Part shown: in pieces, positions 1 through 6,934 of the stretch
Layout: each line of letters starts with the position of its first letter
Position numbering within the stretch: position 1 is the stretch's first letter
DNA from: a virus
Taxonomy: Duplodnaviria; Heunggongvirae; Uroviricota; Caudoviricetes
Strand: one strand, 5' to 3'
DNA length: 6,934 bases
Virus record (IMG/VR): IMGVR_UViG_2671180828_000012
Coordinates: 1-6,934 of that record
The notes under the pieces: model-generated
What the model saw: the letters and a program-made list of their open reading frames with translations, nothing else
Databases searched by the model: none
Told to the model about the DNA's origin: nothing
Translations under genes and position numbers: made by a program

Positions 1-20
1 ATCAGACAGGCAGGATTATT

Positions 21-3000
21 TCAGCGCATATCATAGAGGAGGTCATGGTGGATAAGGGAAAAGAGATTCTTGCAGTACGAAATGCAGCCAGCAACGAATA
101 TGGCGGGATAAACTGTGAGGTGCAGTTTGAAGACGCGGTGAATGAAAAAGGGGAACAGGTATGGCTGCCGTATACTGCAACGGAACACATCGTTCATGAA
201 CAACTGATTCCCCTGCGCCACAAATAACGGCGTGGTGTTGCCGTCCTCCGGGTTAATCATCGCAATACGGTCAGCCAGCAGCAGTATGTTGCTCAGGGGC
301 TGGCCATCAGTATCCTCAATCCCCGCTCCAATACCGGCAACATAGGGTATGCCATTTTTTGTTTTCTGTACCTTCAGCATGTAAAGTGCAGCAAGGTCAT
401 CATTTGTGTCCTTCTGCACGCGCTGTATCTGCTGTATGGTGGCGCTCTGGTCCTCCAGCGTTTTACTGACCGTCTGTGTGATTTCATTGCGGGTTTCGGT
501 GATGGTGGTCTTCATCTCCGCCATCTCATCCGCAAGCTGGCTGTTGTCTATCAGCTCCCACAGCCCCTGAGCCAGATGCAGTTTTCCTATTTTTTCCCGA
601 AACAGCCCCAGATACCCTTCTGCATCATTGCTGGCCCGTCCACTGGCTTCAACAAAAGCAGATTTCCCCACCAGGTTAACGCTGCGTACATAAAACCAGA
701 AATCCTTCCCGGGCTTAATGTGCGGGCCGGAGACAGTCCACTGACTGCCAGTCCCCAGATAACGGGCAGATTTTTCCACCTGTGCCGTGTTCGTGATGCG
801 TTTTTCTGAGAACCAGAATTCAAACTGTACCGTCGGGTCATACACCGCAAGACGCGGGACCGCTGTTATCTGAAAATACCCCGGCGTCAGTTCAATGGTG
901 GCGGGTTTTGCTGGCGCGTTAATCCGGAAGGTGGTGGTGGCCGGTTCGCCCTGCTGGCCATAACTGTTAATTGCCCTGACTGTCAGGGTGTATTCCCCGA
1001 GCGGCAGACCACTGAAACGATGCTCTGTATCCGCAGTGATAGCGGTGGTCACCAGACGGCTGTCTTCTCCGCTTCCGCTGGTCAGTCGCAGACTGAAGCG
1101 CACCCCCTTCACCACCCGCGGCGTGTCCCATTTCGCCTGTGCCAGATACTGGCCGTCAGCTGCGCTCACCTCCACCGTCAGGTGCTGCACTGCCGGTGGG
1201 ATGACGCTGTTCAGGGAGCCTGACTGCGGCTCAAAGCGGGCACCGTTATCCACGATGGCTTCTTTTTCCGGTACGTGCTGCACTGCCGTGATGGCAAAGG
1301 TGCCGTCCGTGTTTTCCCGGATGGAGACACAGCGGAACAGGCGACGACGCAGTGACGGCAGGGAGAGTCCCCATACACCGTATGTCTCCACACCATCAGG
1401 CAGGGTGCTGACCTGTATCCGGTCCGGCGCGGGGTGTGCAGTGATGGCCACGCTCACCGGCTTACCGCTGCCGTTAATCAGGTTCACCGTGGCGGCACCG
1501 GTCTCCGGCAGGGTCACCTCACGGTCCAGTGTCAGGGTGCGGCTGGCGGCATCGATGGACAGGACACGTCCGCCGGTCATGGTCCCGGCATAGTCGTTAT
1601 CACAGATTTCAATAATGTCACCGGGTGTGTGACGCAGCCCCTGTGACCCGAGCGTGAAATCCACCGTCTGCGTTTCCAGCAGTCCGGTCTTTATCACCCA
1701 CAGCCCGGCACGGTGGGCCTGACCGCGACTGGTGCAGCCGAACGCATCCATCTTCAGCAGGTTGCGCCCGTAGCGCAGTATGGCTTCCGGGTCTTCCACC
1801 AGTTCCGTGGAGGTCTGCCAGCCGTTCTGCGGGTCGGTGTAATTCACCTCCACCGCCGTGTGCCGGTCCTTCAGGGCACTGAAGCTGTAGCGAAACCCCA
1901 CGCCGTTATCATCCACCACCACATCGCAGTTGGTGTACGGCCACACCACATCCGACAGGCGGTCCTGAACAAACGTCAGCATCTGGCCGTTCCATACCGG
2001 CATACAGCGCATCGCCGAGCAGAAATCACTGAGAACATCCCACGCCTTACGCTGTTGTGCCAGGTACGCATTGAAGGTCATCCGCGGCTCGGTGCCCCCG
2101 AAGCCATCCGGCACCATCTGGTCGCAGTACTGCCCGATGGCATACAGCGCCCACTTGTCCACATCCGCCGCCCCCAGACGTTTTCCCATGCCGTAGCGCG
2201 GGTGAGTCAGCATGTCCCACAGACACCAGGCCGGATTGTTGCTGTATGCCGGTTTCAGACTGCCGTCCCAGATACCACTGTACGTGCGTTTTTCCGGGTC
2301 ATAGTTTGACGGCACCTGGATGATGCGACCGCGGATATGGTAGTTCACCGTCATCTGCTGACCACCAAACTGCTCCGCATCCACCTGCAGCCCCACAATG
2401 GCCGTGTTCGGGTAGCACTGTTTCACATCGATAATTTCAGTGTACGATGACCAGAGCGTTCTGTTCTGCAACTGGTCCGTGGTGCTGTCCGCCGTCTCCC
2501 TGACCATCCGGATGTTAAAGGGCCGGGGCGGCAGATTATCCAGAATCACCGAGGCCAGGAACTGTGAGGTGGTCTTGCCGTTAATGGTGACGTCCTTTTC
2601 CGTCACCCAGCGACCATTACGCTGTAACTGAATCAGAATCCGGACAGAGGAAGGATTACGGTCGCCCTTTGACGTGGTCTCCACCAGTGACTGCACCCCG
2701 AAGGTCACCCGCAGGCGGTCAATGTTCGCGGACGTAATGGTGCGCGTCACCGGTTTTGCCTTCGTCACTTCCACGCCCAGTCCGGTTTCAGCTCCGGAGG
2801 ACTCAAAGCCTTCAGGTGGTGTCTGCTCCTGCTCCCCGGCGCGCCAGACCGCCGTCACACCGTGTATCACGGGATTACCGTCCGTGCCCGTCAGCGGGGT
2901 TTTGTTCACCAGAATACTCTGCAGGCCTTTCACCGGGCCTTCTATCGGTCCCTCACCAATCGCATCAATCACACTCATCATCTGCGTGGATTTGAGATTA

Positions 3001-3047
3001 TCCTTCGCCTCACGAGGCGTGTGTGCCTTACCGCCACCTTTTCCCAT
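21..3047 (-). CDS. J: Lambda J-like tail tip / host specificity protein, C-terminally truncated (1008 aa versus ~1130 aa in lambda)
   Basis: Translation starts MGKGGGKAHTPREAKDNLKSTQ and is collinear with lambda gpJ as I recall it for ~955 residues, through FVAQGNQLFMNDVF. The last 53 residues (RCSIRQPYLFPFF...) are unrelated and end at TGA 21-23. ATG at 3047-3045 with AGGGGAAGG upstream. Confidence 0.9.
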   Translation of the reverse strand: MGKGGGKAHTPREAKDNLKSTQMMSVIDAIGEGPIEGPVKGLQSILVNKTPLTGTDGNPVIHGVTAVWRAGEQEQTPPEGFESSGAETGLGVEVTKAKPVTRTITSANIDRLRVTFGVQSLVETTSKGDRNPSSVRILIQLQRNGRWVTEKDVTINGKTTSQFLASVILDNLPPRPFNIRMVRETADSTTDQLQNRTLWSSYTEIIDVKQCYPNTAIVGLQVDAEQFGGQQMTVNYHIRGRIIQVPSNYDPEKRTYSGIWDGSLKPAYSNNPAWCLWDMLTHPRYGMGKRLGAADVDKWALYAIGQYCDQMVPDGFGGTEPRMTFNAYLAQQRKAWDVLSDFCSAMRCMPVWNGQMLTFVQDRLSDVVWPYTNCDVVVDDNGVGFRYSFSALKDRHTAVEVNYTDPQNGWQTSTELVEDPEAILRYGRNLLKMDAFGCTSRGQAHRAGLWVIKTGLLETQTVDFTLGSQGLRHTPGDIIEICDNDYAGTMTGGRVLSIDAASRTLTLDREVTLPETGAATVNLINGSGKPVSVAITAHPAPDRIQVSTLPDGVETYGVWGLSLPSLRRRLFRCVSIRENTDGTFAITAVQHVPEKEAIVDNGARFEPQSGSLNSVIPPAVQHLTVEVSAADGQYLAQAKWDTPRVVKGVRFSLRLTSGSGEDSRLVTTAITADTEHRFSGLPLGEYTLTVRAINSYGQQGEPATTTFRINAPAKPATIELTPGYFQITAVPRLAVYDPTVQFEFWFSEKRITNTAQVEKSARYLGTGSQWTVSGPHIKPGKDFWFYVRSVNLVGKSAFVEASGRASNDAEGYLGLFREKIGKLHLAQGLWELIDNSQLADEMAEMKTTITETRNEITQTVSKTLEDQSATIQQIQRVQKDTNDDLAALYMLKVQKTKNGIPYVAGIGAGIEDTDGQPLSNILLLADRIAMINPEDGNTTPLFVAQGNQLFMNDVFRCSIRQPYLFPFFIHRVFKLHLTVYPAIFVAGCISYCKNLFSLIHHDLLYDMR
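45..227 (+). CDS. Hypothetical protein, probable 5' fragment of a gene truncated at the prophage deletion junction (60 aa; last ~14 codons lie in antisense J-homologous DNA)
   Basis: ATG at 45 (or GTG at 48) directly preceded by AGAGGAGG (35-42), a strong Shine-Dalgarno. The ORF is convergent with J and runs ~45 nt past the point where J homology begins (~183), so the C-terminus is probably junk from fusion. No family recognised. Confidence 0.35.
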   Translation: MVDKGKEILAVRNAASNEYGGINCEVQFEDAVNEKGEQVWLPYTATEHIVHEQLIPLRHK

Positions 3048-3150
3048 ACAGCCTTCCCCTGAATAAATTAACCGCCACTTGCCATTCCGTACAGAAGTCG
3101 GATATCCTTCGCCCGAAAAGCATGAAACACATTTCTGCCATGCTAAAGAG

Positions 3151-3186
3151 AAACCCCGGTATCAGCAGATACCGGGGTTTTCTTTC
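3151..3186. terminator. Perfect 13-bp inverted repeat with 4-nt loop, flanked by T-rich sequence on both strands (putative bidirectional intrinsic terminator)
   Basis: aaaccccggtatc (3151-3163), loop agca, gataccggggttt (3168-3180) is a perfect 13-bp stem. It is followed by tctttc on the plus strand and by ctcttta on the minus strand. It lies ~100 nt upstream of the J start codon. Confidence 0.5.
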
Positions 3187-3252
3187 ATGCCCACCGATAA
3201 TCCTGTTGGTTAAAACCGGTAATGGCATAAAAATTCTGAATATCTTCACATT

Positions 3253-3280
3253 TTCACAAACTGACCGTGGCGCGTATAAT
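3253..3280 (+). promoter_or_regulatory. Sigma70-like promoter: -35 TTCACA (3253-3258), 16-bp spacer, -10 TATAAT (3275-3280), with an A/T-rich upstream tract
   Basis: Consensus -10 hexamer TATAAT and a 5/6 match to TTGACA at 16-bp spacing. The A/T-rich stretch 3219-3245 is UP-element-like. Predicted start near G3287. Confidence 0.4.
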
Positions 3281-3286
3281 TTCTCT

Positions 3287-3385
3287 GCGTTAATTTTTTT
3301 GTCGTGATATAAGAATAATTCCTTACACTTAATCTTCGTAACTCTCCCGCAGTTCCTGTCCGCGATCACTGCGGGATTTTTTTAT
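3287..3385 (+). ncRNA. Candidate ~100-nt small RNA (moron-like), antisense to the late tail operon in the I-J intergenic insert
   Basis: Bounded by the promoter at 3253-3280 and the intrinsic terminator at 3345-3392. No ATG-initiated ORF lies between them. The body is AU-rich with C/U-rich tracts (UUCCUUACACUU, CUCUCCC) and ends in a GC stem plus U-tract, as in Hfq-type sRNAs. Ends are predicted, not measured. Confidence 0.3.
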
Positions 3386-3392
3386 TCTTTTT
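3345..3392 (+). terminator. Rho-independent terminator: 9-bp GC-rich stem, 14-nt loop, U-tract
   Basis: tcccgcagt (3345-3353) pairs perfectly with actgcggga (3368-3376), followed by tttttttattcttttt. It is only terminator-like in the plus orientation; the minus-strand flank is not U-rich. Confidence 0.55.
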
Positions 3393-3609
3393 ACCCCTGC
3401 CGCCCGATAACCACGACCTTTCCGCCCCCGCCTTCATCACGGGTGCTGATGTCCTGGGATATACGGCGGGAGCCAACCAGCATTTCACCGGAGATATTCA
3501 CGCAGGGGAAATATCTTTCCCCCTCCGGCGTGCTTACCACGAAGCCGCACGACTCCGCAGGCGCACACCGCCGGGCATGCGCCAGAATCGCTGATTCAGT
3601 CTGTGTCAT
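3391..3609 (-). pseudogene. In-frame fusion remnant of tail assembly genes K (N-terminal ~42 aa) and I (C-terminal ~30 aa)
   Basis: ORF from ATG 3609 encodes MTQTESAILAHARRCAPAESCGFVVSTPEGERYFPCVNISGE, matching the lambda gpK N-terminus as recalled, then MLVGSRRISQDISTRDEGGGGKVVVIGRQG, which resembles the lambda gpI C-terminus (...GEMRVGSRVVSQEISTADEGDGGQVVVIGR). Stop TAA at 3393-3391. The K catalytic region and most of I are missing. Confidence 0.7.
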
Positions 3610-3619
3610 AAACCGGGAT

Positions 3620-4318
3620 TTACTGCGAAAGTTTATTAATGGAAAGGAAACCGCCAAAATTGCCGACATTCCTGCGCAGTTCACACCCGCGCATGCACTT
3701 GCTGCATCTGTCCTTACGGATATCCGTGGTGGGTTTATCGAACTCATCCGCCACAGCCCCGCCCGTGTAACCACACTCATCAGAGCGGTAGGTCCACATA
3801 CAGGTGTTCGCCAGCATGATACGACCGGGAAACAGCGCCCCGTCCGTCTCGGTCGGTGTGGCCAGCACAAACGAGGCCGTCATGGCTGTCAGCTGCGACA
3901 TCTGCTCCACCACCCAGCGGTCACTCAACTCCTGCTCCGGGTCCGCCGCCGGATTGCCCGCAACGAAATTCACCGCATCCAGAAAACGGGCATACACCCG
4001 GCGGCGGACCACCGTGGCCCCCACCAGACTCTGCAGGTCTTCCGCCATCCCGGTGACCAGACCGAACAGATTGGACACCGTCAGCGACGGTCTGGCACTG
4101 CTGCCCTTCCCGCTCATCTCAAAACCGCTGCCGTCAATCGGGTATGCCTGATATTGCCGCCCCTGCCAGGTGACCGGCTCCCCTTTTTCATTCAGCTCAT
4201 TACAGAAAAAATACCGCTCACCACCCTGCACCGTCAGGTCAATTTCCCAGAGTACCACCCGCGGTGACTGCTCTGATTTAACCGACTCGCTCAGACTTTC
4301 TTCGTGAATATCCTGCAT
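3620..4318 (-). CDS. L: Lambda L-like tail tip assembly protein (232 aa)
   Basis: MQDIHEESLSE...VVLWEIDLT...GGERYFFCNE...GNFGGFLSINKLSQ is full length and collinear with lambda gpL. The ATG overlaps the M stop codon (ATGA), as in lambda. Confidence 0.93.
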   Translation of the reverse strand: MQDIHEESLSESVKSEQSPRVVLWEIDLTVQGGERYFFCNELNEKGEPVTWQGRQYQAYPIDGSGFEMSGKGSSARPSLTVSNLFGLVTGMAEDLQSLVGATVVRRRVYARFLDAVNFVAGNPAADPEQELSDRWVVEQMSQLTAMTASFVLATPTETDGALFPGRIMLANTCMWTYRSDECGYTGGAVADEFDKPTTDIRKDRCSKCMRGCELRRNVGNFGGFLSINKLSQ

Positions 4319-4647
4319 CAGTTCACCACCTGCTTAAACTCCGCGCTGAACTCAACGCGCAACATCCCGACCCGCGCAGACCACCCGGCACAGGTCACCT
4401 TTATCTGCCGGTATGCATAGGGTGGCTTCCACAAAAATGCCTTCCAGCCACCGTGCTCTGCCAGGAACGCTTCCAGATGCCGGGCCTCCTCCCGGGTCAC
4501 GGAAAGCGTCACCCTGTATGTTTTCAGGTCAGCATTCAGCCCTGCCGCCATACGCTGTGAGTACCCGTCACCAAAACGCACTTCACGCACCGATGGCTGC
4601 GAGTTCACCTCCATATCCGGCTTCACTTTCCAGCGAAAGGTTTTCAT
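4318..4647 (-). CDS. M: Lambda M-like tail tip assembly protein (109 aa)
   Basis: MKTFRWKVKPDMEV...VRFGDGYSQR...MLRVEFSAEFKQVVN is collinear with lambda gpM. The start overlaps the H' stop (ATGA) and the stop overlaps the L start. Confidence 0.93.
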   Translation of the reverse strand: MKTFRWKVKPDMEVNSQPSVREVRFGDGYSQRMAAGLNADLKTYRVTLSVTREEARHLEAFLAEHGGWKAFLWKPPYAYRQIKVTCAGWSARVGMLRVEFSAEFKQVVN

Positions 4648-5840
4648 CCACCGCTCCCTGATAACATACCGCCATCACGCAACTGCAGCCGGAGTTCATC
4701 CTGTGCCCCCTTGCGGGCCATCTCATACACCGCTTTCATCAGCTGCGGCCCTGCCCGCCCGTTGGGGCCGTCGTTCTGAATCACCACGTGATTGTTCTGA
4801 TTAAAATTAATGCCTTCCGCCCGCCGCATCTGCGCCGGACTTCCGGCACCGCCGACATAACCACCTTCCGCATAGCCCCGCATCAGGCGGTACAGATTGC
4901 CGACACCAATCCGGCTGGTCGCCTCCTTCGTGAAGACAAACTCCCCGCGATGAACAATCCCCGCAGGTTCATATTTACCCCCCGTCCCCGTAAATCCCCC
5001 GGTCGCGAAATGGAAGTTCGCCGCCGCAGCCTGAATGGCCGTCCCCGTGGAGGCAGACGCACCACCACCGAAAGCACCGCCAATGGCGCTGCCGATACTC
5101 CCGACTATCCCCACCATCGCCTGCTTCAGAAAAATCTCTGTCAGCATGGACAGCACAGAACGGGTGAAACCACGCCAGTTCTGTTCGCTGCCGGTCAGCA
5201 TCGCTGCCATATTCTGTGCAATACCGTCAAAGGTCTGCGTGGCCGCGTTTTTAACCTGCGAAAAACTGTCCGTCGCACTTTCCGCCCACTCGCCCCAGCC
5301 GGACTTCATCCCGGCCATCCAGCTTCCACGAAGCTGCTCCTCCGCAGACCAGGTGTTCTTCAGTGCAGATGTGGCCTTCGCCAGCGCAGCCGGATTATCA
5401 CCGTACACCTCACGAAGGCGCTGCTCTTCCGACTCCCGCTGCGCCTGACGGTCGGTGAGTCCGCGGGCTTTTGCGCTGATTGCCGCCTGCTTCGCGCTCT
5501 GCTGCTGTTCAAACCGCGCCGCCTGCTGTGCCAGCTCATTCAGCCGTTTCTGGTGTTCAATCTTGTCGCCCAGCTCAGCCAGCTGGCGTTTGTACTCCAG
5601 CGTTTCTTTCTCATGGGCCAGCAGGGATTTTTCCTGCTCAGATACCATGCGGCATTTAGCGGCATTCATCGTACACTCAACGGTTAGCTCTTCATTCGTG
5701 GCATTCACCTGAAAGGTCCGGGAGTGTAATTGCGTACATTTACCACTGAACGAACCTTCAACAAGAACACGACCACGCTGCAAAATACGGAACGGAATTG
5801 TTCCCTGAAAAGGCTTTACGGTTACCAGTAATTTCTTCAT
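4644..5840 (-). CDS. H: Chimeric tape-measure protein: foreign ~61-aa N-terminal module fused in frame to the C-terminal ~335 aa of a lambda H-like tape measure (398 aa)
   Basis: From SEQEKSLLAHEKETLEYKRQLAELG to the end (...KAVYEMARKGAQDELRLQLRDGGMLSGSGG) it is collinear with the lambda gpH C-terminal third as recalled. The N-terminus MKKLLVTVKPFQGTIPFRILQRGRVLVEGSFSGKCTQLHSRTFQVNATNEELTVECTMNAAKCRM is unrelated. ATG at 5840 has GGAG 7 nt upstream. The listed ORF start at 5858 is a TTG and less likely. Confidence 0.8.
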   Translation of the reverse strand: MKKLLVTVKPFQGTIPFRILQRGRVLVEGSFSGKCTQLHSRTFQVNATNEELTVECTMNAAKCRMVSEQEKSLLAHEKETLEYKRQLAELGDKIEHQKRLNELAQQAARFEQQQSAKQAAISAKARGLTDRQAQRESEEQRLREVYGDNPAALAKATSALKNTWSAEEQLRGSWMAGMKSGWGEWAESATDSFSQVKNAATQTFDGIAQNMAAMLTGSEQNWRGFTRSVLSMLTEIFLKQAMVGIVGSIGSAIGGAFGGGASASTGTAIQAAAANFHFATGGFTGTGGKYEPAGIVHRGEFVFTKEATSRIGVGNLYRLMRGYAEGGYVGGAGSPAQMRRAEGINFNQNNHVVIQNDGPNGRAGPQLMKAVYEMARKGAQDELRLQLRDGGMLSGSGG

Positions 5841-5863
5841 GCATTCTCCGGATAACAAAAATA

Positions 5864-6331
5864 CTAGTTAATACACTGAGTGCGGATATAGTCCTGCGCC
5901 CCTTCCAGTTGCTTCTGCATTGTCATCAACCGCTCTCTGAGGGTGAAATAATCCCGTTCAGCGGTGTCTGCCAGTCGGGGGCCGGTTGCATTATCCACGC
6001 GGGCGGTGCCGGTGGCTTCACGCACGGAACCTGGACAGGTGGCGTTGATACGCAGGCTGCGGCGACCAGCGGCAACGTCAGCGCGCAGAGTTTCATTTTC
6101 AGCTCTCGCATCGGCTAACTCCTTTGTGTATTTTTCATCCAGCGCAACAACATCACGCTGACGCTGCTGCATGTCAGTAATGGTTGTGTTTGCCAGCTCC
6201 AGCTCTCTGGCTTTTTTATCGCGCTGCGCTTTGTAGGTGATGGCGTTATCGCGGTAATGATTCAGCCCCAGACTAAGCACACCACAGGCTACCAGCAGGA
6301 CAATAATCACCACACACAGAACACGGTTCAT
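5864..6331 (-). CDS. Rz: Rz-like i-spanin (inner-membrane spanin subunit, 155 aa)
   Basis: [48 protein letters not shown]...[29 protein letters not shown] is collinear with lambda Rz: N-terminal transmembrane segment then coiled-coil periplasmic domain. ATG at 6331; the longer ORF listed to 6415 is an upstream extension. Confidence 0.9.
5926..6111 (-). CDS. Rz1: Rz1-like o-spanin (outer-membrane lipoprotein), fully embedded in the +1 frame of Rz
   Basis: [61 protein letters not shown] has a signal peptide with lipobox-like AAAC and a proline-rich body, and is collinear with lambda Rz1. Confidence 0.85.
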
Positions 6332-6332
6332 A

Positions 6333-6419
6333 TCACCACCAACGGATTGCCCAGACCAGAACAGCAATGGCCACAATACGAATGGCAAATGCCATTGCCC
6401 GAATAAGTTCAGCACTCAT
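6333..6419 (-). CDS. Possible 28-aa hydrophobic peptide ([28 protein letters not shown]) whose stop lies 1 nt before the Rz start
   Basis: ATG at 6419-6417, TGA at 6335-6333, Rz ATG at 6331. The product is essentially one transmembrane helix. The RBS is weak (AAAAAG) and the frame is open a further ~30 codons upstream without an ATG, so it may be a gene remnant. Confidence 0.2.
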
Positions 6420-6430
6420 CTTTTTAAAGT

Positions 6431-6613
6431 TCACGATTTCAGCGCAATGACCAGTTTTGCCAGCCCATACAGTATCGGAGACACAGCGATACCAACCGCC
6501 ACCCACTTAATAGCAAAAGCCAGCGCTCTGCTGATGTCATCAGTTACTGGCGCTTTCAGTTCAAGGCCGTTTTTCATAGTCAACCTCAACAGAATTCGTT
6601 TATACTTTTCCAT
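6431..6613 (-). CDS. Small tail-anchored membrane protein (60 aa) at the position where a lambdoid lysis cassette carries its holin; family not recognised
   Basis: ATG at 6613-6611 preceded by AAGGGAGAAC. Product MEKYKRILLRLTMKNGLELKAPVTDDISRALAFAIKWVAVGIAVSPILYGLAKLVIALKS has a basic soluble N-terminus and a single C-terminal transmembrane helix. Stop TGA at 6433-6431. It does not resemble lambda S or phage 21 S as I recall them. Confidence 0.45.
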   Translation of the reverse strand: MEKYKRILLRLTMKNGLELKAPVTDDISRALAFAIKWVAVGIAVSPILYGLAKLVIALKS

Positions 6614-6646
6614 GTTCTCCCTTGCCTTATCCAAGGTCAGAAACAC

Positions 6647-6690
6647 AAAACCCCGCTTGCAGCCAACAAACGGGGTTTTTACTTTTATTC
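6647..6690. terminator. GC-rich hairpin flanked by T-runs on both strands (bidirectional intrinsic terminator), ~30 nt upstream of the 60-aa ORF
   Basis: aaaaccccg (6647-6655) pairs with cggggtttt (6671-6679) around a 15-nt loop, followed by ttacttttattc on plus and by ttttgtgtttctgacc on minus. Its position relative to the lysis genes recalls lambda tR', but no convincing upstream late promoter was found. Confidence 0.4.
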
Positions 6691-6702
6691 ACTTAGTTTT
6701 TG

Positions 6703-6934
6703 TTAGTTCGCAGGATTTCGTGTTATCCGTCCGTGTGAGCAAACCGCATTTTTCAGCAAAATATTCTGCTTATCTGTCAATTCCCCAGCACGCCAGCGCA
6801 CTCTCCTGGTCGCGACGGGATACCTGACCGTAACAGTTGTTTGAGCGAATACGGCAGTCTCTGCCACCGTCCTTAATCCACCAGCGAATCGCTTCGCATG
6901 CTCCCCTGCGATCACCTGCATTAATTCGTCTGTA
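6703..6934 (-). CDS. 3' end of an ORF entering from beyond the right edge (at least 76 codons); unknown function
   Basis: Open frame from the window edge to TAA at 6705-6703 (...ELTDKQNILLKNAVCSHGRITRNPAN). In a lambdoid layout this slot would hold the Q antiterminator or a nin-region gene, but I see no Q-like zinc-finger motif. The internal ATG at 6921 has no Shine-Dalgarno. Confidence 0.25.
   Translation of the reverse strand, partial: TDELMQVIAGEHAKRFAGGLRTVAETAVFAQTTVTVRYPVATRRVRWRAGELTDKQNILLKNAVCSHGRITRNPAN

Follow-up and report, generated by a model that had tools for sequence, protein, structure and literature searches.

Deletional decay is an already known and ordinary feature of the lambdoid prophages of Escherichia coli. 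The cryptic elements DLP12, Rac, and Qin of strain K-12 have had their morphogenesis genes deleted and have kept a lysis cassette alongside scattered tail and fibre genes; they are old, fixed in their lineage, and carry many point pseudogenes. Here we describe a related prophage remnant on a 6,934-nucleotide stretch of viral DNA (IMG/VR record IMGVR_UViG_2671180828_000012, positions 1 to 6,934; hereafter the window). As in DLP12, Rac, and Qin, morphogenesis was lost by deletion and a lysis cassette with homologues of S, R, and Rz/Rz1 was retained. Unlike the K-12 elements, the window remnant shows only 0–1 substitutions since its deletions and is known from only a handful of assemblies. Very probably, it is an ordinary lambda-like E. 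coli prophage at potB/potC that was recently disabled by a few rearrangements at microhomologies, and its remaining genes are intact for lack of time to decay.

The window is the entire short-read draft contig CDQN01000124.1 (6934 bp; GCA_000938575.1), on which every substantial open reading frame (ORF) lies on the minus strand. Two further contigs carry an identical 1008-aa “J” protein: a longer sister contig, CDRC01000015.1 (L007; 14,490 bp, GCA_000939695.1), and a 127-kb scaffold from a human-gut metagenome (L006). L007 extends upstream through endolysin R, a DUF1327 gene, and holin S, and downstream through a 404-aa gene on the opposite strand and a 134-aa DUF4376 gene into potB, potA, and pepT; L006 runs on through potB-potA-pepT to roxA, phoQ, phoP, and purB. 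These flanks identify the host as E. coli. Intact reference prophages were available from strains S1-CAM-01-A (L009/L010) and 23CRST047 (L001) and from phage PhiR5_1, and two further relatives (L004, L005) supplied a parental gene, orf74, discussed below. The S1-CAM-01-A prophage is an intact lambdoid element of ~47 kb between potB and potC, with int and xis adjoining potC (NZ_CP145714.1, ~2728.6–2775.6 kb). With its potB/potA/pepT flanks in L007 and L006, the remnant thus occupies the attachment site used by its intact relatives.

Comparison with the S1-CAM-01-A prophage and its relatives (23CRST047, 55989/O104:H4, and PhiR5_1) reveals both the ancestry of the remnant and the extent of its losses. 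The gene order is the same, H-M-L-K-I-J-lom-stf-DUF4376, with a spacer between I and J that holds a homologue of the small RNA (sRNA) PasB. Identity to intact potB/potC prophages is 97.6–98.8% across window 182–5644 and reaches 100% in the surviving part of H (H'), M, the PasB spacer, and the stf/DUF4376 segment. Relative to the intact prophage, the window lineage is without ~12–14 kb (Nu1 to H codon 537), ~1.1 kb (between K and I), and 1158 plus 43 bp at the right end, where a 1545-bp stf segment is in addition inverted; the two lineages also carry different alleles of the lysis cassette, which share only ~78% identity. Homology to intact prophages wholly explains window 1–5644, in three segments (1–185, inverted; 182–3490; 3485–5644), and 5641–6934 matches lysis cassettes, with ~10% of the stretch unaligned. 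Three junctions marking the loss of virion-essential genes could be mapped to the base against L001, L004, L009, and L010.

The right-end event is a complex one. J ends at codon 955 of 1157, such that its C-terminal ~202 residues, the receptor-binding portion, are lost; the FNIII-A_GpJ, Phage-tail_3, Ig_J, and Ig_J_second domains are complete, and Phage_Tail_Tip is cut at profile position 84/139. An earlier note on this DNA, made from the letters alone, had correctly recognized that the J C-terminus is missing, and had described the J body as an uninterrupted 1008-codon frame. That frame is indeed open, but only codons 1–955 are J; the last 53 are read-through, antisense to the start of an inverted DUF4376 gene and the 3' end of stf. 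Window 1–185 is 100% identical, in reverse orientation, to the stf end and DUF4376 start of S1-CAM-01-A, 55989, and O104:H4. The sister contig shows what lies beyond: L007 8380–10480 resolves against L009 into three 100%-identical segments, which run through J to 2482, from 5185 back to 3641 in inverted orientation, and from 5229 onward. The event therefore comprises a 1158-bp deletion (J codons 956–1157 and most of lom), a 1545-bp inversion (the last 117 nt of lom, the whole of stf, and DUF4376 codons 1–47), and a further 43-bp deletion, with 4-bp overlaps at both joints.

The inverted segment (L007 8446–9990, of which window 1–185 is the left end) holds a collagen-repeat stf. This side tail fibre gene is intact in L007 (8595–9809, minus strand; 404 aa; phrog_366 tail fiber, E 2.6e-102) and 100% identical to the L009 stf. 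After it come the 134 C-terminal DUF4376 codons, leaving the assembly gene split and stf facing the truncated J (J'). The claim that all fibre genes downstream of J are missing thus fails: they appeared absent because the window's contig ends there. Similarly, at least three separate rearrangements can be counted, as had been proposed, but this one combines deletions with an inversion and is not a simple deletion. An inversion of 1545 bp with flanking deletions is the signature of a one-step complex rearrangement, not of invertase action. Site-specific fibre inversion of the Pin/Gin type was considered and rejected: one breakpoint interrupts J and the other DUF4376, the two have no more than 4 bp in common, and deletions occurred alongside.

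The largest deletion joined the lysis region to the tail genes. A 398-codon chimeric ORF begins 23 bases past the Rz stop. Codons 1–67 correspond to orf74, a 74-codon post-Rz gene of unknown function (phrog_2571) in L004 and L005, up to the residues CRMVS, and the remainder corresponds to the last ~333 of the 870 codons of the tape-measure gene H (538–870), with Pfam Tape_meas_lam_C at chimera residues 172–246; homology to the L001 H starts at window 5644. At this junction, the parental sequences read GCATGGTATC followed by CGCTG (L004) and GCAGTTATC followed by TGAGC (L001), and the window reads GCATGGTATCTGAGC. Removed between the two are Nu1, A, W, B, C, D, E, FI, FII, Z, U, V, G, T, and H codons 1–537, a loss that gene coordinates in L010 would put at ~12 kb plus the cos region, roughly 12–14 kb. 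The loss had been placed between Rz1 and the last third of H; its H boundary fits, and the other break lies inside the post-Rz gene, not at Rz1.

A smaller deletion collapsed K and I into the 72-codon fusion, exactly as the earlier note had it, with K(1–42) joined in frame to I(164–193). PHROG matches divide accordingly, residues 1–42 to K families and 41–71 to an I family, and blastn aligns window 182–3490 and 3485–5644 to L001 6001–9309 and 10407–12561. The genes between the two deletions, M and L, are full length, as was claimed for them and as their Pfam matches bear out; M is identical at the DNA level to L001, L006, and L010. The translational coupling inferred from conserved ATGA overlaps is only partly reproduced: H' and M overlap in this way (junction sequence GGATGAAAA), but M and L share a single base (TGATG). 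L is separated from the K'-I' fusion by 10 nt.

What remains is a lambda-like tail-tip order—H, M, L, K, I, and J on one strand—with the families expected of it (Tape_meas_lam_C, Phage_min_tail, Phage_tail_L, a Prok-JAB fragment, and the J domains), in which H retains ~333 of 870 aa, K and I 42 and 30 aa, and J 955 of 1157 aa. With the terminase, portal, capsid, Z, U, V, G, and T genes gone, along with most of H, K, and I and the receptor-binding end of J, the conclusion that the element cannot build a virion holds as far as its own genes are concerned. In lambda, the tail tip is assembled from J, then I, L, and K, then H/G/GT, then M. Given this order, the surviving M, L, and J', even with K'-I' and H', would be unable to complete a tail tip.

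No insertion sequence (IS) or foreign DNA is found at any junction; phage DNA is joined directly to phage DNA, and all four joints carry 4–6 bp of microhomology. These features point to short-homology illegitimate recombination or template switching as the likely mechanism, and on the same grounds IS-mediated deletion was rejected.

The sister contigs allow the events to be ordered. A 41-mer spanning the J junction is present in L006, L007, and the window (L008), and k-mers spanning the K'-I' and orf74-H' junctions occur only in L007 and the window. L006 encodes full-length H (870 aa), K (247 aa), and I (193 aa) alongside an identical J' junction; therefore the right-end event came first and the two deletions later. 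The proposed course would thus begin with the compound deletion and inversion at the right end, followed by the K-I and orf74-H deletions. Little has changed since. The window and L006 show no differences over 2160 aligned bp of H'-M-L-K', and their J segments are identical at the protein level (1008/1008 aa, as in L007). Window and L007 differ at one position over the same 2160 bp, a non-synonymous change in H' (T/G at window ~4806, column 839 of the alignment to L007 2987–5146; AAT to AAG, Asn to Lys), and no other substitution is seen after the deletions. Two contigs from two samples encode the 398-aa chimera without any change, and L007 carries a one-residue variant.

Outside these assemblies, the junctions occur in none of 5426 complete E. 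coli genomes, and exact-match scans for the J-junction 41-mer returned none in JGI metagenome contigs and none in GTDB representative genomes. The top whole-window matches among the complete E. coli genomes (85% cover over 11–13 kb) were considered as possible relatives; in the one inspected (L003, O157:H7 FRIK944) the structure differs, as the tail and lysis pieces come from two neighbouring prophages and are arranged in another order. The deletions are younger than the first substitution in ~2 kb, and are confined to a few closely related samples.

This recency bears directly on whether the surviving genes are under selection. The earlier note had posed a choice between recent deletions and retention for a host function, and had proposed dN/dS as a check. 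Calculated against the intact prophages L001 and L010, the ratio is 0.07–0.09 for L and 0.10–0.11 for J(1–955), and M is identical to both references. The ratios are low, but the check is uninformative here: truncated H', which is surely non-functional, scores equally low (0.12 against L001, and identical to L010), and these values are therefore inherited from the phage lineage and are silent on the remnant. Differences from L001 are clustered, as expected for mosaic recombination among phages. Because there has been no time to decay since the deletions, the intact state of M, L, J', and Rz/Rz1 is no evidence for retention. Of the two options, the identity to L006 supports recency, and host retention of M, L, J, and Rz is unsupported. 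The truncated R on the contig (R'), Rz/Rz1, M, L, J', and the PasB sRNA would all survive for want of mutational time rather than for use by the host.

Table 1. Features of the window, ordered by position, with the evidence for each
Feature	Position	Strand	Evidence
stf (404-aa side tail fibre), last 11 codons and stop, inverted; rest beyond contig	1..36	+	
Non-J tail of 1008-codon ORF, 53 codons, read-through into inverted DNA	21..182	-	
DUF4376 (tail fibre assembly-like), first 47 codons, inverted relative to J	45..185	+	Identity to annotated relatives
Junction 3a, J codon 955 to inverted DUF4376 codon 47, 4-bp microhomology	182..185		Overlapping blastn segments (L007 vs L009; window vs L010)
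J codons 1–955 of 1157	183..3047	-	Pfam; homology to L001, L010 stops at window 182
Strong palindromic hairpin, bidirectional-terminator-like	3146..3190	both	Fold z-scores -6.6 (+), -5.1 (-)
Predicted sigma-70 promoter, TTCACA-16-TATAAT, 11/12	3253..3280	+	Consensus scan; conserved upstream of E2348/69 PasB
PasB-family sRNA gene, ~84 nt, opposite to tail operon	3300..3383	+	Homology, fold, terminator
K'-I' in-frame fusion, 72 aa, K(1–42) + I(164–193)	3391..3609	-	Comparison with L001 K and I translations
Junction 2, K to I, ~1.1 kb deleted, imperfect microhomology CGGTGA/CGGGGA	3485..3490		blastn vs L001
Minor tail protein L, 232 aa, full length	3620..4318	-	Pfam PF05100, E 5.5e-92
Minor tail protein M, 109 aa, full length	4318..4647	-	Pfam PF05939, profile 1–108/108
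orf74(1–67)-H' in-frame chimera, 398 aa	4644..5840	-	Translation vs L004, L005; Pfam
Junction 1, orf74 joined to H codon ~538, 4-bp microhomology TATC	5641..5644		Parental-sequence comparison
Rz i-spanin, 155 aa, full length	5864..6331	-	Pfam PF03245 (Phage_lysis), E 9.6e-50, profile 1–125/126
Rz1 o-spanin lipoprotein, 61 aa, inside Rz, other frame	5926..6111	-	Pfam PF06085, E 4.3e-21, profile 1–40/41
Small hydrophobic ORF, 48 aa, unknown function	6431..6577	-	phrog_1115, E 8e-33; no Pfam match
Terminator-like hairpin, 14-bp stem, between R and small ORF	6647..6679	-	Consensus scan only
Endolysin R, C-terminal 54 codons, runs off contig end	6770..6934	-	PHROG phrog_7, E 1.9e-14

One product of the remnant deserves separate consideration. 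The gap between the I remnant and J is 344 bp, and is present in intact relatives also, so it is not a product of decay. Within it, opposite to the tail operon, lies an intact homologue of the PasB gene of enteropathogenic E. coli (EPEC) E2348/69 (NC_011601.1 1466343–1466261), which the annotation of that genome places in the equivalent I-J spacer, likewise opposite to the tail genes. The two are identical at 65 of 83 nt, and the published northern probe (PMC8550237 supplementary table) matches the window at 20 of 23 nt. The window gene also has -35 and -10 hexamers, an AU-rich body, and an intrinsic terminator with a stem (~3345–3376) followed by a U run, ending at 3383; hexamers and terminator stem are conserved between the two. 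At ~84 nt to the 83 nt of E2348/69 PasB, and with differences mainly in the 5' half, it is a sequence variant of the same sRNA gene.

In EPEC, PasB is an 83-nt, northern-validated transcript with Hfq-dependent stability and tens of partners by RIL-seq (Pearl Mizrahi et al. 2021, PMC8550237). A recent preprint (Zhu, Shabalina and Storz 2026 preprint) places it within operons of phage structural genes and notes that it occurs outside predicted prophages more often than do other Pas sRNAs, which its authors suggest may reflect decay of neighbouring phage genes. We find homologues in 1836 of the 5426 complete E. coli genomes—about one third—with no annotated feature in the records listed. When the full window was scanned against Rfam at E <= 1, the I-J spacer was left unmatched, and Rfam holds no model for PasB; the sole match in the window, to the rimP leader, was discounted as chance level (27.6 bits against a gathering threshold of 47). 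The PasB homologue would be the only plausible host-acting product of the remnant, if any acts. Elsewhere in the spacer, the hairpin at 3146–3190 has a 13-bp GC-rich stem and lies in a part that varies between relatives (it does not align to PhiR5_1); it could act as a bidirectional terminator that insulates the PasB unit, or form the 3' terminus of another small transcript. A weak promoter-like site is present at 3079–3108 (+).

It is conceivable that the remnant is kept for its host after all, with the PasB-family sRNA expressed from a silent prophage by its own promoter and terminator (together spanning 3253–3383) and the tail genes hitch-hiking. The documented activity of PasB in EPEC, its prevalence, its relative abundance outside predicted prophages, and the fact that the K-I deletion spared its gene would all suit this explanation. 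The copy in the window is, however, 100% identical to those in the intact prophages L001 and L010, leaving no decay time against which conservation could be read, and one locus cannot demonstrate selection; we therefore consider it unlikely. A more elaborate version holds that decay was non-random: the deletions would leave a host-useful core, PasB with or without an SOS-triggered S-R-Rz/Rz1 module for altruistic suicide, and the in-frame fusions would keep the operon non-toxic. Were this so, the locus would capture the earliest stage of a prophage being domesticated around an sRNA, but we regard it as very unlikely.

Two other explanations concern the arrangement itself. Short-read assembly could in principle have created the junctions through chimeric joins between prophages of one genome, and the window, as a 6.9-kb draft contig ending inside R and stf, genes that recur from prophage to prophage in many E. 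coli genomes, is the type of sequence in which this might be suspected. Such an origin is extremely improbable, given that the K'-I' and orf74-H' junctions recur in two different assemblies, that the J junction recurs in an independent metagenome assembly, and that the joins share only 4–6 bp, an overlap much too short to cause a mis-join in a k-mer graph. F-pyocin clusters, in which a lysis cassette accompanies tail genes without heads, are superficially similar in layout to the window lineage, where the large deletion places S-R-Rz/Rz1 directly upstream of H'-M-L-K'I'-J' and no head genes remain. The element might accordingly be, or be becoming, an F-type tailocin. Gene content refutes this. 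A tailocin of this type combines a complete non-contractile tail set with a lysis cassette, and here the tube and chaperone genes (Z, U, V, G, and T) and H codons 1–537 were lost together with the heads, K and I are destroyed, J is without its receptor-binding end, stf is inverted, and its assembly gene is split. No particle could assemble, and we give the tailocin explanation virtually no credence.

The preferred explanation, a prophage too recently broken to have decayed, has points against it also. Its timing rests on 0–1 substitutions across three independent contigs, plus a second sample with the window's contig, and is not convertible to years. The early region, Q, and the rest of the source-strain prophage lie off contig, as the contigs end upstream of the holin; should the early region and Q be functional, S-R-Rz/Rz1 would be expressed on induction and the cell would lyse, yielding no virions. 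Both deletion fusions (398 and 72 aa) are in frame, for which the chance is ~1 in 9; this could hint at selection, but is statistically not meaningful and probably a coincidence. The same holds for the K-I deletion, which could be taken as a hint in that it stops 100 nt short of the PasB terminator, but is again statistically not meaningful.

The lysis cassette is intact in L007, where S, R, Rz, and Rz1 are all complete and R encodes 177 aa with a Pfam Phage_lysozyme match. In the window, the earlier description of Rz/Rz1 as intact is confirmed by near end-to-end Pfam matches. Rz has the expected membrane anchor, an N-terminal hydrophobic segment seen in the translation, and the Rz1 signal sequence ends in LVAAAC, with the lipobox cysteine following LVAAA. 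The pair resembles that of lambda, in which Rz1 is likewise wholly embedded in Rz and the membrane anchor and lipobox cysteine are present, and there is nothing notable about it by comparison: it is a common allele, 94–95% identical to many E. coli prophages. Between R and Rz (6431–6679), a hairpin is followed by the small hydrophobic ORF in a moron-like layout within the cassette; the gene calls of L007 and L008 give the ORF 48 aa, and it would encode 71 aa if the GTG at 6646 were used. The same slot is filled in relatives by other small ORFs or by a DNA methyltransferase. On the other side of the lysis genes, between Rz and Nu1, the S1-CAM-01-A prophage (L010 23742–25371) encodes a “beta family protein” and an “sce7726 family protein” where orf74 would be. 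The cargo at this position, immediately after the lysis genes, is variable and may include morons of a defence type.

Within the known pattern of lambdoid prophage decay, the locus provides a clean case resolved to the base, in which sister contigs reveal the sequence of decay events: the right end first, then K-I and Nu1-H. It also illustrates how contig ends can mimic missing genes. More broadly, it calls for caution in the interpretation of broken prophages, as intact genes with low dN/dS are no evidence of domestication where no substitutions have accumulated since the breaks. The one biologically relevant passenger of the remnant is its unannotated PasB-family sRNA gene in the I-J spacer.

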